A DNA stretch of 39,194 nucleotides. Origin: a virus. Below, one piece after another: positions 26,966-33,417 of this stretch (positions are counted from its first letter, which is position 1; the number at the start of each line of letters is the position of its first letter). Made by a program: the position numbers and the translations under genes. The notes beneath the pieces were generated by a model. The model saw only the letters and a list, made by a program, of their open reading frames with translations. It ran no database searches and was not told the origin of the DNA. The stretch is from UHGV virus genome UHGV-0142770; one strand, 5' to 3'.

Positions 26966-27009
26966 AACCACCGTGGTAATAGTTACCATTGTGGTAATAG
27001 TACCATGCA

Positions 27010-29621: not shown

Positions 29622-29925
29622 TGGTTGCCTCCTTTGCTGGGCCTTCTAACTTCTGAGTGGTTGTATCAAACTCAAACAACTTAACCACGTCATCAAACAG
29701 GACATAATTGCCATCAGAATCTTCAGTCATGTCAGCGCCACAATCCTGACCGCACGAGTCACAACCATCCATATCAAGCTCGTATCGCTTCAGGTTTGCG
29801 ATATTTGATAAATTCAGCGCCAGTACAGCTAGGTCATAAACCTCGTCAGCGGTATATCCTGCACCATGTCCATACATTTCAATGCGGGATATGATTTCTT
29901 CTACCCGTTGTTTTGTGATTGTCAT
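29608..29925 (-). CDS. Hypothetical acidic protein
   Basis: 105 aa, coupled within the early-right operon. Confidence 0.4.
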   Translation of the reverse strand: MTITKQRVEEIISRIEMYGHGAGYTADEVYDLAVLALNLSNIANLKRYELDMDGCDSCGQDCGADMTEDSDGNYVLFDDVVKLFEFDTTTQKLEGPAKEATSEQD

Positions 29926-30620
29926 TTTTGCTCACCACTCTGTTCTTCCAGAAAAATACGCATAGCCTCAAGCATCTCTTCGGTGTCATACGGAGACAGC
30001 TTGTCACGCAGGATGTGTTCAATGCTGTTAATGAACTTGCGGATTGCTTTGCGTTCAATTTCAGCCAGGAAAGCGTCGGTGGCTGGGGTTTCGATATTAG
30101 GCAGAAGCGCATAATCGCAAATCGTATCGATCGCAGGATCACAACAGTCATCCTCGTTGCGTGGTCGTTCGCCAACCTTCGTTGACGATTGCATGATGAT
30201 TCCCCAGCAAATACTATCGACCTCTTCGCTCCATCCATCGCAAGCATCACCGCGATAGTCGTCGATTGCAGCCTCAGCCGATTCGATAGCTTCCTCAGCA
30301 GTTTTGTGCCATTCGAAATTATGCTCAGAGCCATATGAGAAATATGAATGTCCCGCCTTCAGCCCCGCATTCTCCGCCGCCAGCGCCGAAAACTTCTCGT
30401 GTGCCAACTTAACAGCCGAATCAGCCTGCTTAATTGACTCAATCGCTCTCTGGTGGTCTTCGGCCAGCGCATTAGCACGCACCAGTTGCACTTCCAGTTG
30501 CGTTGCCAAATCGCTGATCAGCTTTGCCACACTGCGCATATCAACGGCACCACATTCTGCTTTCAGTTCCGAAGCCATCTCATGCCCGGCGGCAACTAAC
30601 CCTTTGATATTACTTTCCAT
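29922..30620 (-). CDS. Hypothetical protein
   Basis: 232 aa, acidic, coupled; no motif recognised. Confidence 0.45.
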   Translation of the reverse strand: MESNIKGLVAAGHEMASELKAECGAVDMRSVAKLISDLATQLEVQLVRANALAEDHQRAIESIKQADSAVKLAHEKFSALAAENAGLKAGHSYFSYGSEHNFEWHKTAEEAIESAEAAIDDYRGDACDGWSEEVDSICWGIIMQSSTKVGERPRNEDDCCDPAIDTICDYALLPNIETPATDAFLAEIERKAIRKFINSIEHILRDKLSPYDTEEMLEAMRIFLEEQSGEQK

Positions 30621-30681
30621 CTTTACCCTCGCTTATCCACATAACTTATTGATTACATTGATAACTAAAAAGATCGTCGAT

Positions 30682-31026
30682 TCAGAACTCTTCGATGTTC
30701 CAGCCACCACCTGCTTTCTTTGGCTTAACCGTTACCCCGATGATTCGGAACGGATACTGATCTGCGGCGACTTTGGTTTTCACCCTGGCGTCGTCGGTCC
30801 AGAAACCTTTCACTTCGTGCAGTTCCATCTCGCCGGTGGCGAGCATCACAGCAAAATCGGGCGTATAGAACGTGTTGTCAGCTAACCGCAACTTGATACC
30901 CTCGAATCGATACCAGGCGATTTCCCCTGCACGTTTACGCTGCTCAAGGTGCTGGCAATACGCAGATTCTGTTTTGTTCATCTGGCCTGTTTTGAGTCGA
31001 CCAAGAGCCTGTATCTGTTTTCTCAT
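30682..31026 (-). CDS. PD-(D/E)XK-like small phage protein (DUF1064-like)
   Basis: 114 aa with YTPDF ... ELHEVK spacing compatible with a PD-(D/E)XK nuclease core. A perfect TTACC-N5-GGTAA site lies 4 nt upstream of its ATG. Confidence 0.45.
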   Translation of the reverse strand: MRKQIQALGRLKTGQMNKTESAYCQHLEQRKRAGEIAWYRFEGIKLRLADNTFYTPDFAVMLATGEMELHEVKGFWTDDARVKTKVAADQYPFRIIGVTVKPKKAGGGWNIEEF

Positions 31027-31091: not shown

Positions 31092-31106
31092 TTACCTGAT
31101 AGGTAA
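31092..31106. promoter_or_regulatory. Candidate repressor operator TTACCTGATAGGTAA
   Basis: Perfect palindrome 62 bp from the 31030 site, flanking the same promoter region downstream of the P-like gene. Confidence 0.5.
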
Positions 31107-31143
31107 TTATTGAGACGTAAAAAAATGCGCTATCGCGCTGGTA

Positions 31144-31944
31144 TTACTTGATAAATCCTGCCGCCTTTCCCCGCCTGTATTCCTCCATCAGCCACTGCGC
31201 CGGTGTTATTCCCCCAAGGGTGGCGGCGTTAGGCATGCACCCGAAACTTCGCCCTGGTGGATGGTAAACGTCTCTCCCTGTGTCCGGAGGCGTACTCATG
31301 GGCTCTGGCTTTGCCTGTATGCTGATCACCGGATCGGGTATCTGCTGTCCGGAAGCCACCTTTTTCGCCCAATCATCGAGCAGCCTGCGTGCGTGTTTCT
31401 CAACCTCAATCTCGCTAAGCTGGCGCTGATACATTGCACGGCGGGTATCACATACGACCCAGTACATAACCGGATGTCGCCACGGGAATCTTTCGGGACC
31501 ACCAGGATATAAACTTTTTTCCTTGCTGTACCGGTGAAACTCCGCCATCACATCGTCAATGGTGACGCCAAGAACCATCTTGCTGTCTTTGCACCACTTG
31601 ATAAATTGCCCTGGAGACGGCCAGAACGGAGATTCACTGGCGCGGGCGTGGCGCATACCAGCAGAAACCTGTTCACGGGTTCGGATCCCCCCTTCGGCAA
31701 ACGCAGCAATCCACTGCTGTTTTGCAGCAACTTCCTGCTCTGGCGTCTTCAGGTTGGTTACCACTGCCGCCGGAAACAGTTGTTTCAGCTGTTTAAAAAG
31801 GGCATCAACAAGCCTCTCTGCTGACATGTTCACCACATTGTCATTGTTGACGTACTGATGCTCATAACCTGACATGCGAGAAAGGGCTTCTCCGTCACGG
31901 TTTTGTATCGCGGTAAAAACGTTGTTCACAAGAAATCCTCCCAT
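31144..31944 (-). CDS. Replication protein P-like (helicase loader)
   Basis: 266 aa; QQWIAAFAEGGIRTREQVSAGMRHARASESPFWPSPGQFIKWC closely parallels lambda P (RRQWVLAFRENGITTMEQVNAGMRVARRQNRPFLPSPGQFVAWC). Directly follows the O-like gene. Confidence 0.8.
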   Translation of the reverse strand: MGGFLVNNVFTAIQNRDGEALSRMSGYEHQYVNNDNVVNMSAERLVDALFKQLKQLFPAAVVTNLKTPEQEVAAKQQWIAAFAEGGIRTREQVSAGMRHARASESPFWPSPGQFIKWCKDSKMVLGVTIDDVMAEFHRYSKEKSLYPGGPERFPWRHPVMYWVVCDTRRAMYQRQLSEIEVEKHARRLLDDWAKKVASGQQIPDPVISIQAKPEPMSTPPDTGRDVYHPPGRSFGCMPNAATLGGITPAQWLMEEYRRGKAAGFIK

Positions 31945-32759
31945 GCTTCAGGGCTGTTCCAGTGCGGAACGTTGTTATCAGGTAATGTTGATTGCTTCTG
32001 TCTGCTAATCTGCAGCCGCCTTGCCAGCTTCTGCTCCCACTGCGCCTGATGGTATGCCTTACCCTCAGCCATCCAGTAAATTCTGAACTCTGCAAGTTCC
32101 TGTGCCGTTGGCAGACTGTCCAGGTAGATCCCCTGCAATGAGCTTTTCCGAAGAAAGTCATCTGATGGTTGCCATTGTTCATGCATGACAAATTTGCCTA
32201 ATTGCCCTGGCCCACCAGGAGGAACAAAGTTATTCATCACGGCGTTGTTTGCGCCGGGGTCATGAGGCACAGAATCCCCGCTTTTTGTCCTGCTCTCCCT
32301 CTCTTGGTTAAATGACTGGTTATATGACTGGTTCTGGATCCCGTTTTTGGGATCATTCAACATCCCGTTTTTGGGATCATTCAACATCCCGTTTTTGGGT
32401 ATATTCCCGTTTTCGGTAACATTACCGTTTTCGGTAACATTACCGTTTTCGGGTTCATTACCCCCTTCCCGGTTGCCTTTAATGTTCCCGTTTTTGGTTA
32501 TATTAAGAGAGAAAACCCGCACTCTTTTCGTCGCTCCCTTTCTCTCTCCGGTATCTGAAATAAGCCCCATTTTCATGAGCGATATAAGCCCGGCCTGCAC
32601 GGTTTTTTTATTCAGACAAGTGTCTTTAACGAGGCGTTCTATGCTGGGGTAGCAGAGGTTATATTCATCGGCTCTGTCAGCCATCGAGAGCAGTATGAGC
32701 TTTAATGACGAGCTACCTGGATCTGTCTCCCAGGCCCAATCTGTTGCATGTCTGCTCAT
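31926..32759 (-). CDS. Replication initiator O-like protein with iteron-encoded repeat region
   Basis: 277 aa; N-terminal winged-helix-like region (LKLILLSMADRADEYNLCYPSIERLVKDT...); central NGNVTENGN... repeats are encoded by DNA iterons; followed by the P-like gene with overlap. Confidence 0.75.
   Translation of the reverse strand: MSRHATDWAWETDPGSSSLKLILLSMADRADEYNLCYPSIERLVKDTCLNKKTVQAGLISLMKMGLISDTGERKGATKRVRVFSLNITKNGNIKGNREGGNEPENGNVTENGNVTENGNIPKNGMLNDPKNGMLNDPKNGIQNQSYNQSFNQERESRTKSGDSVPHDPGANNAVMNNFVPPGGPGQLGKFVMHEQWQPSDDFLRKSSLQGIYLDSLPTAQELAEFRIYWMAEGKAYHQAQWEQKLARRLQISRQKQSTLPDNNVPHWNSPEAWEDFL
32338..32505. repeat. Replication origin iterons inside the O-like gene
   Basis: ATCCCGTTTTTGGGATCATTCAAC at 32338-32361 repeats exactly at 32362-32385 with a third partial copy; then CCCGTTTTCGGTAACATTA-type copies at 32406, 32425, 32443 and 32487. 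Seven CCGTTTT(T/C)GG cores with 18-24 bp period. Confidence 0.7.
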
Positions 32760-32774
32760 GATTAATCTCCGCTA

Positions 32775-32975
32775 TCAGCTTGAATGTTGTGGGGAGGAAT
32801 TAATCATGATCTGCTTAATCTCTGCCCTGATACGACGGTTTGATTCCATGGTGCACTCAACACAGTGTCCGTTGTAAACCCAGCGTTCACTGTCATGTCC
32901 GTGCTTACATGTTTTTCCGGTGTAGTAGCGTTTAAGTCCGCGCTTTGCGGCATCAATACGTGTAATGATTTCCAT
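32775..32975 (-). CDS. Small putative Zn-binding regulator at the cII-equivalent position
   Basis: ATG 32975; about 66 aa with C-x-H-G-H ... H-C-V-E-C spacing, between the Cro-like gene and the O-like gene. Confidence 0.4.
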   Translation of the reverse strand: MEIITRIDAAKRGLKRYYTGKTCKHGHDSERWVYNGHCVECTMESNRRIRAEIKQIMINSSPQHSS

Positions 32976-33080
32976 GGTAAGCCCTGTTATTAGTATTGGG
33001 ATTACGGTCATTTTGTGCTGACACAAAAAAAAGATCAACCAGATTTGGTTTTTTATTACCTTTGAGGTACGAATAGATAT

Positions 33081-33104
33081 GAAAAGACCGCCGGATGGCG
33101 GTCT
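33081..33104 (-). terminator. tR1-like intrinsic terminator between the cro-like gene and downstream early genes
   Basis: 8-bp stem AGACCGCC/GGCGGTCT with GGAT loop (33085-33104); on the minus strand followed by UUUUC (33084-33081). Confidence 0.6.
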
Positions 33105-33356: not shown

Positions 33357-33388
33357 AGCTATTGCCTGATATTTATTTCAGATAATAA

Positions 33389-33417
33389 ATATTCACCCAT
33401 AAGGTAACAAAAATCAA
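33389..33417 (-). promoter_or_regulatory. Candidate pR-like promoter for the cro-like gene
   Basis: On the minus strand TTGATT (33417-33412), 17-bp spacer, GAATAT (33394-33389), about 30 nt upstream of cro ATG 33356. Confidence 0.35.

Follow-up and report, generated by a model that had tools for sequence, protein, structure and literature searches.

The window considered here is a stretch of 39,194 nucleotides of UHGV virus genome UHGV-0142770, a length close to that of an entire phiV10-like genome, and the subject is an array of short DNA repeats, or iterons, which lies inside of one of its replication genes. Judged by similarity, the window is a phiV10-like Uetakevirus, i.e., positions 31100-33100 are 97-98% identical to the Escherichia phages phiv142-3, vB_EcoP_PAS61, and phiV10, all of genus Uetakevirus. 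Positions 32275-32505 very likely constitute this phage's origin of replication, located within the linker-coding part of the gene for the phage's own replication initiator. That gene (31926-32759, minus strand) encodes, as seen from its open reading frame (ORF) together with Pfam and PHROG profiles, a protein of 277 amino acids that consists of an N-terminal winged helix, a repeat-encoded linker, and a DnaT-like C-terminal domain. An iteron origin located inside of an initiator gene is textbook for lambdoid phages, and iterons found within an initiator gene are in this sense the expected arrangement. What differs here is that the initiator is of another family, the dyad is shorter, and a 12-mer element with a specific sequence stands in for a plain AT-rich tract.

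The iteron array as a conserved DNA motif

The sequence CCGTTTTYGG is found exactly, on the plus strand, seven times in the window, starting at positions 32341, 32365, 32389, 32407, 32425, 32443, and 32488 (with the last of these cores ending at 32497), and is found nowhere else in the 39,194 bases. The expectation from shuffled sequence is 0.14 +/- 0.35 occurrences, with none of 100 shuffles reaching seven, and allowing one mismatch adds only two further sites, scattered, over the whole window. A preliminary description of this DNA had pointed to seven such cores, to two exact 24-bp repeats, and to a location within coding sequence such that the DNA repeats encode protein repeats, all of which holds up. 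That is, the 24-nt units at 32338-32361 and 32362-32385 are identical, the array is inside of the minus-strand ORF 31926-32759, and the cores are translated as (P/T)(K/E)NG. By Tandem Repeats Finder, 32338-32399 contains 2.6 copies of a 24-nt unit with 100% matches, and 32389-32462 approximately four copies of an 18-nt unit.

Read in the orientation of the gene, the iteron array as delimited by repeat searches (32338-32505, no strand assigned) consists of seven 10-bp cores, CC(A/G)AAAACGG, which in gene order are 32488-32497, 32443-32452, 32425-32434, 32407-32416, 32389-32398, 32365-32374, and 32341-32350, with spacings of 45, 18, 18, 18, 24, and 24 bp. Each core sits within a dyad of approximately 16 bp, either ATCCC-AAAAAC-GGGAT or TTACCG-AAAA-CGGTAA. 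These then are at least four tandem direct repeats, within the range of about 16-19 bp, that possess internal dyad symmetry, as a lambda-type embedded origin is expected to display. So too with location: The cores share one codon phase and encode amino acids 88-140, which is to say the portion of the protein between its HTH_36 domain (amino acids 18-67) and its DnaT domain (amino acids 190-258), and a gene for a lambda-P-family helicase loader immediately follows that of the initiator. Within the 45-nt gap there is a probable decayed eighth iteron, as read from the sequence, CCGGGAAGGG in gene orientation (32463-32472, no strand assigned), which matches the core at 7 of 10 positions.

Variation in the array over short evolutionary distances can be seen among 78 relatives from IMG/VR, whose N-terminal domains are 99-100% identical and which were used for copy-number variation, with diversity instead coming from the genome scan that is described below. 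These relatives possess from four to nine exact cores, with a mode of six versus the seven of the window, and their arrays differ by whole units of 18 or 24 nt; a 12-mer found next to the array (see below) is present in two to three copies. Phage phiV10 itself differs from the window by one fewer 18-nt unit and one more 12-mer. Core number among the 78 thus varies but never collapses, and the stretch that is encoded by the decayed unit (REGG, LEGC, LDGC, REGS, and others) is the array's most variable part.

As all seven cores are read in a single frame, the window alone cannot separate a DNA signal from a peptide repeat. More distant relatives were found by tblastn, using the N-terminal 87 residues as query, and these matches, at 42-58% identity, are from phages of Edwardsiella (GF-2), Vibrio (Her/H8 group), Acinetobacter (AB1, AP22), E. 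coli (PPompW), and Burkholderia (Bcep176), as well as an EBPR podovirus. Each carries a tandem array of a similar core directly after the domain, e.g., CCCAAAATTGGG, CCGAAAACGG, CCCAAATTTGGG, and GTCCCAAAAACGGGAC. A core pattern was written from these phages and then applied to an independent set of 65 loci, one genome per species, including from Superficieibacter, Providencia, Proteus, Vibrio, Pseudoalteromonas, Marinomonas, Wohlfahrtiimonas, Acinetobacter, and Arsenophonus. The pattern is matched 141 times in the 22.9 kb found 240-600 nt past the gene starts versus 43 times in 357 kb elsewhere on both strands, which is an approximately 50-fold difference.

Reading frames were counted over 72 loci (the 65 genomes plus seven phages). 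Two or more cores are present in 40 of these, and 23 of the 40 have the same 10-mer in multiple codon phases, giving rise to peptides of PKNG type (130 times), of QKR type (21 times), and of PKTE type (19 times), and spacings between units of 17, 22, 23, and 25 nt are common. Synonymous third positions are equally telling. At 65 distinct [PTS][KE]NG sites, chosen by peptide rather than by DNA, these positions are C in 100%, A in 100%, and C in 94% of instances, versus 19%, 65%, and 52%, respectively, over the rest of the same ORFs. What is conserved is, as these sequence comparisons indicate, the DNA motif and not the encoded peptide, with both the direction and the size of the effect unambiguous.

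The dyad symmetry also is maintained. Bases found two and three positions outside of the core are complementary in 65% and 62%, respectively, of 162 distinct sites, where 45% and 34% are expected and none of 2000 shuffles reaches what is observed. Flanks which vary but nevertheless stay symmetric are suited to reading by a dimeric winged-helix protein.

With more diverged N-terminal domains, different arrays are found at the same position. Insertion-type Acinetobacter domains carry GTACCAACAAYGGAAC, those of Desulfovibrionaceae carry CCCCCGAAC-type units at spacings of 17 and 22 nt, the array unit from Sphingobium is TCGGAAAAATCCGA, and the 'O' protein of Min27/Stx2a (HTH_36, 29% identity) is associated with GGGGTGGGGCAGGAGCTGCCC, present three times. 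Phages Tyrion, Klebsiella ST512-KPC3phi13.3, and TL-2011b, by contrast, have kept the DnaT-like C-terminal domain along with the P gene but possess unrelated N-terminal domains, and from these the cores are absent, with other repeats present. As arrays thus change along with the N-terminal domain, the repeats travel with that domain rather than with the C-terminal domain or the phage backbone. The alternative initiator gene of TL-2011b includes two 28-nt repeats (2232-2259 and 2441-2468 of its locus, L003) that are 209 bp apart, each with a 19-nt palindrome, GTAACGCTGnnnGCGTTAC, and these may represent that phage's own origin signal.

The initiator and its likeness to known systems

The initiator matches Pfam HTH_36 over amino acids 18-67 (E 1.9e-10), the Pfam DnaT domain over amino acids 190-258 (E 1.2e-15), and PHROG 1032, 'replication initiation protein', over amino acids 1-275 (E 2e-110). 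An HTH_36 domain in combination with a near-full-length profile match places it among the HTH_36-type phage initiators, i.e., PHROG 1032 and relatives. The N-terminal DNA-binding domain (amino acids 1-85; 32505-32759, minus strand), which is the presumed reader of the iterons, is predicted by AlphaFold2 (amino acids 1-90, mean pLDDT of 88.5) to have the topology H-H-H-H-strand-strand, that is, of a winged helix. Matches to this model in a Foldseek search of the PDB are all winged-helix DNA binders, the N-terminal domains of staphylococcal RepA (4pql, 5kbj) included, with all at E > 1e-3. A search for protein homologues using the 87-aa domain returned short or truncated proteins only, and these were the basis of a shallow alignment.

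Short ORFs, of approximately 97-130 amino acids and ending inside of the repeat array, are indeed numerous in the protein database (P0001-P0036), with some of these (P0005, P0009, P0025, and P0032) visibly frameshifted. Two of the IMG/VR relatives (L014 and L018) similarly possess truncated initiators, of 182 and 231 amino acids. Slippage or assembly errors within the array may be responsible.

Turning to the C-terminal domain (amino acids 186-271; 31947-32204, minus strand), phmmer against PDB chains matches this to residues 85-170 of E. coli DnaT, also known as primosomal protein I (9zbt, 6aep, 4ou6; E 7e-21 to 5e-20). The last 85 residues of the phage protein, that is, correspond to the single-stranded-DNA-binding domain of DnaT, and this domain presumably binds single-stranded DNA, recruits the loader, or does both. 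It is only the C-terminal half of DnaT that is matched, however, with the N-terminal 185 residues of the phage protein (winged helix plus iteron-encoded linker) having no DnaT counterpart, and the phage gene also differs in sitting in a replication module, with the P-like loader gene as its neighbour. As seen in several phage records, the names 'DnaT' and 'primosomal protein I' describe one domain rather than the protein, and the widespread annotation 'Primosomal protein I / DnaT' would be better replaced by that of a modular, origin-binding initiator. The phiV10 homologue carries the annotation 'replication initiation protein' (as identified via the DnaT family), and the gene next to it is listed as 'putative replication protein p'. 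The latter's equivalent in the window (31144-31944, minus strand) overlaps the initiator's stop codon and is identified as a lambda-P-family helicase loader gene by Pfam Phage_lambda_P (E 1.5e-56) as well as by PHROG 109, 'P-like helicase loader' (E 4.7e-92).

The initiator does not match Phage_rep_O (PF04492) at E <= 0.01, whereas lambda O itself does so at 5.7e-36, and comparing the two proteins directly gives nothing meaningful with BLASTP and a probability of 4.8% with hhalign. By these measures it falls outside of the lambda O family and is O-like in layout and presumed function only. The preliminary description's use of 'O-like' consequently survives in the latter sense but not as a statement of family.

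Likeness of layout is nevertheless extensive. In lambda, ori occupies the middle of gene O, with four iterons bound by O along with an AT-rich region, and gene P is next; the Stx phages 933W and P27 have six iterons. Iteron number in lambda versus Stx phages is thus four versus six (PMC7466680), and copy number differs among relatives in the family described here as well. In both systems the array is located within the initiator gene, between sequences encoding an N-terminal DNA-binding domain and a C-terminal recruitment domain, with the gene for a P-family loader next. The iterons themselves are also alike: Those of lambda (735-819 of L013), ATCCCTCAAAACGAGGGA, and those of the window (32338-32400), ATCCCAAAAACGGGAT, both have TCCC...GGGA arms, a central A-tract, and a dyad, and are spaced at 20-24 bp in lambda and about 18-24 bp over the two systems. 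Lambda iterons are intrinsically bent (PMC7466680), which the central A-tract of the iterons of the window and its family recalls.

Differences are that the arms of the window's iterons are 3 bp closer together, that the N-terminal domain is HTH_36 rather than Phage_rep_O and the C-terminal domain DnaT-like rather than that of lambda O, and that lambda's 40-bp AT-rich tract is replaced in the window by three GAAYC 12-mers plus a polypurine tract of moderate instability. As neither BLASTP nor hhalign versus lambda O demonstrates homology, the likeness of the iterons cannot be called ancestral; on sequence grounds it could represent either convergence or deep ancestry.

A natural chimera links the two systems. 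In Edwardsiella phage GF-2, the N-terminal domain described here, along with iterons, is fused to the C-terminal domain of lambda O (62% identity over 144 amino acids, E 2e-67), and a P-like gene is next. Alignment of GF-2 DNA with lambda ori places the GF-2 iterons on lambda's annotated iterons and the element that follows the GF-2 iterons on lambda's AT-rich tract, with near-identity between the two phages starting exactly at the end of that tract. Such collinearity implies that a winged helix, iterons, and second element can be interchanged with the N-terminal domain of lambda O, its iterons, and its AT-rich region. The preliminary description had viewed these repeats as origin-type iterons, arranged as in lambda ori, and this view gains strong support from the chimera as well as from the multi-frame cores, the fixed synonymous sites, and the co-variation of repeats with domain.

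Likeness is seen also to the iteron origins of theta plasmids, in that these combine a winged-helix initiator (RepA, RepE, or pi, as well as staphylococcal RepA_N) with a tandem array of binding sites. The window nonetheless differs from a plasmid-type origin (Rep_3/oriV style) as its iterons are intragenic whereas those of plasmids are next to rep, DnaA boxes do not form a cluster but instead number just one, 1.7 kb off, and the fold matches are generic, at E > 1e-3.

A second element, the proposed initiation events, and alternatives

Starting 6 nt past the last core (32305-32337, no strand assigned) is a second element, which in gene orientation reads CA-GAACC-AGTCATAT-AACC-AGTCATTT-AACC, i.e., three (G/T)AAYC units that are 12 nt apart. 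Part of this had been pointed out previously as a pair of direct repeats, ATGACTGGTT, on the array's downstream side. Exact copies are indeed found at 32312 and 32324, and only there in the window, with lower coordinates being downstream in the orientation of the gene, where the pair reads AACCAGTCAT; Tandem Repeats Finder includes them in a 12-nt array of 2.4 copies (32305-32333). The pair is no mere neighbour of the iterons, however, but instead belongs to a conserved element. A triple (G/T)AAYC with spacing of 12-13 nt is found exactly 6 nt past the last core in 26 of the 40 loci, versus a background of two clusters in 231 kb. Most loci have its units in two different codon phases, and in Vibrio phage Her one finds GAACCAGTCAT twice, 13 nt apart. 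The triple is conserved as DNA in phages of Enterobacterales, Vibrio, Pseudoalteromonas, Marinomonas, and Acinetobacter.

Given its position as well as this conservation at the DNA level, the second element is proposed, as a tentative but quite possible assignment, to be the site of opening or of helicase entry. The 12-13-mers that are found beside the iterons are reminiscent of the 13-mers of plasmid unwinding elements. By a duplex-stability scan, the 12-mer region is only moderately unstable, ranking within the least stable 5-7% of the genome's 30-40 bp windows, and the 60 nt past the last iteron are 57% AT versus 53% for the locus. As a site at which opening could be sequence-specific, the GAAYC element is a concrete candidate, as well as the part of this system most worth further study. 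A broader possibility, less likely than not, is that the GAAYC triple takes the place of the generic AT-rich tract as an unwinding or helicase-entry element that is sequence-specific and of a kind not described before, with its single strands recognized either by the initiator or by a host factor that is conserved, and in addition that HTH_36 winged helix, 16-bp dyad iterons, and 12-mers together form an ancient, freely exchangeable origin-specificity module which shares ancestry with lambda's O N-terminal domain and ori.

Beside the 12-mers there is a polypurine tract, AAGAGAGGGAGAGCAGGACAAAAAGCGGGGA (32275-32305, minus or gene strand), with 28 purines out of 31 positions. This is the most purine-rich 31-mer of the window, considering either strand (top 0.005%), and in the nearest relative (L094) the count is 30 of 31. 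A tract reaching the top 1% of its own locus is found in 13 of the 40 loci, so that, being strong in about a third of relatives, it was rejected as a family-wide feature.

How initiation might proceed can be pictured by analogy with lambda ori. Dimers of the N-terminal winged helix would bind the seven 16-bp dyad iterons, with their core CC(A/G)AAAACGG and central A-tract, and the bound initiators would form an O-some-like, bent nucleoprotein complex. That complex would strain the adjoining 32275-32337, i.e., the three GAACC/AACC 12-mers plus polypurine tract, which then would open. The DnaT-like C-terminal domain might hold the resulting single-stranded DNA, dock the P-like loader, or both, with the loader in turn recruiting the host DnaB helicase.

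A number of points weigh against placing the origin here. The cores of the window itself are all in one frame, such that the multi-frame argument is one that rests on relatives, and p-values from the various comparisons are overstated as the sites tested are related by descent and by tandem duplication. The fold match is to winged helices generically, with the Foldseek search of the PDB pinpointing no specific initiator family. The preliminary description had proposed scanning the flanks both for AT content and for DnaA boxes, and neither scan lends support: The duplex-stability scan reveals no lambda-like 40-bp AT-rich tract near the repeats, so that one is not clearly present, and many intergenic regions are far less stable, while DnaA boxes are not enriched, with but a single perfect box in the window (30633-30641, TTATCCACA), which is below chance expectation and 1.7 kb from the array. 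GC skew, with a cumulative minimum near 33-34 kb, is uninformative with regard to the origin because that minimum coincides with a switch in the direction of transcription. Lastly, a literature search turned up no report of either binding or origin activity for this initiator or its relatives. The same search, from which many subscription papers fell outside such that earlier mention is possible, found no origin described for phiV10 or epsilon15-like phages and, with equally partial coverage, no match for this iteron sequence nor for HTH_36 in association with iterons.

Might the repeats instead be a slippage-prone, low-complexity, Asn/Gly-rich linker that has no function as DNA, with the origin elsewhere, such as in an AT-rich intergenic region? 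The regular (P/T)(K/E)NG, read in one frame by all seven of the window's cores, is what such a linker would look like, near-identical relatives differ in copy number, as is seen with any tandem repeat, and nowhere in the initiator gene is stability nearly as low as in several of the intergenic regions. There is no requirement, however, for a peptide repeat to retain dyad symmetry by covarying flanks, nor would one explain synonymous positions that are fixed at 94-100%, the many arrays with spacings that are not multiples of three, or, in 23 of 40 relatives, a single 10-mer that encodes unrelated peptides in its two or three frames. We view a pure linker as quite improbable. Somewhat easier to entertain, though still unlikely, is that the initiator does bind these repeats but mainly toward control, i.e., autoregulation, a transcriptional roadblock, titration, or handcuffing, with initiation occurring at another site. 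Iterons of Rep_3 plasmids serve in both initiation and copy control, which provides precedent. Furthermore, with Stx phages only the four iterons nearest to the AT-rich region are bound efficiently (PMC7466680), so additional copies need not all act in initiation. But no second cluster of cores is found in the genome, even with one mismatch allowed, and hence no separate origin-type site for the same protein; a second conserved element at a fixed 6-nt offset fits better with a composite origin than with an operator; and GF-2/lambda collinearity puts the array at the functional ori of lambda.

That GF-2 turns lambda-type just past the second element, and that alternative N-terminal cassettes are found on phiV10-like backbones, might suggest that the repeats are chiefly a recombination joint for exchange of initiator modules between phages. 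Junctions nonetheless are outside of the iterons rather than within them, and iterons always travel with the N-terminal domain, as is expected as a by-product of a specificity cassette, making this a very improbable account of what the repeats are for. Still harder to credit is a series of intrinsic terminators on the plus strand, acting on antisense transcription. A consensus scan does find three hairpin-plus-T-run sites on that strand of the array (32348-32367, 32372-32391, and 32414-32427), each formed by the 3' arm of an iteron pairing with the 5' arm of its neighbour, ahead of the T-run. The stems are weak, though, with 5-6 pairs of which three are G-C and with loops of up to 8 nt, the region's six terminator-like sites are near the expectation from shuffles (3.1 +/- 1.9), and no better-scoring plus-strand promoter reads into the hairpins. 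Such hairpins arise automatically where neighbouring dyad iterons have central A-tracts, and they have been dismissed here as a probable by-product of the adjacent dyads.

An origin at 32275-32505, should it be confirmed, would provide phiV10 and epsilon15-like phages, which include O157 reporter and typing phages, with one that is both precise and testable. More generally, a motif that is read in three frames, synonymous sites that are fixed, and dyad flanks that covary together provide a computational signature for origins hidden in coding sequence, one applicable to hundreds of prophages across Proteobacteria.

Neighbouring sequences and related replicons

Upstream of the replication genes a consensus scan finds a promoter-like site (33382-33410, minus strand) as well as, between these genes and a cro-like gene, a terminator-like hairpin (33085-33104, minus strand); the latter is from the consensus scan only, with a matching terminator annotated in phiV10. 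Given these two, early, rightward-type transcription would traverse the proposed origin. Just upstream of the initiator is a small ORF (32775-33038, minus strand) that belongs to PHROG 1081 (unknown function), includes a Cys/His-rich stretch, CKHGHDSERWVYNGHCVEC, and is conserved in both phiV10 and epsilon15.

Phages ZX5, HEMP4, and TL-2011b have backbones which otherwise are 97-98% identical to the window but differ over 31675-33033. The swapped segment consists of the small upstream ORF, the entire initiator gene, and the 5' third of the P gene, such that the N-terminal part of P apparently is exchanged together with the initiator, though the boundaries, as read from alignment coverage, are approximate.

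Elsewhere in the window, the sole perfect DnaA box, TTATCCACA, is located between ORFs 29922-30620 and 30682-31026, an intergenic stretch that is among the least stable. There is in addition a tandem repeat at 26973-27006, with an 18-nt unit present 1.9 times, GTGGTAATAGTTACCATT, that is partly palindromic (Tandem Repeats Finder score of 61).

Initiators of this family are found also in circular records. NZ_CP079771.1 and NZ_CP079768.1 are 41,027-bp E. coli 'plasmids' with N-terminal domains 100% identical to that of the window, and apparently are phiV10-like genomes that were recorded as extrachromosomal circles. NZ_CP148379.1 (L160), a circular E. coli record of 8,461 bp, consists of cargo plus a module of repressor, Cro, YdaT, DnaT-like initiator (of the PPompW type, with an N-terminal domain that is 49% identical), and P. 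With no other replication gene listed, and unless it is an assembly artefact, this record would appear to be a naturally occurring counterpart of lambda-dv, a minireplicon based on this initiator family.

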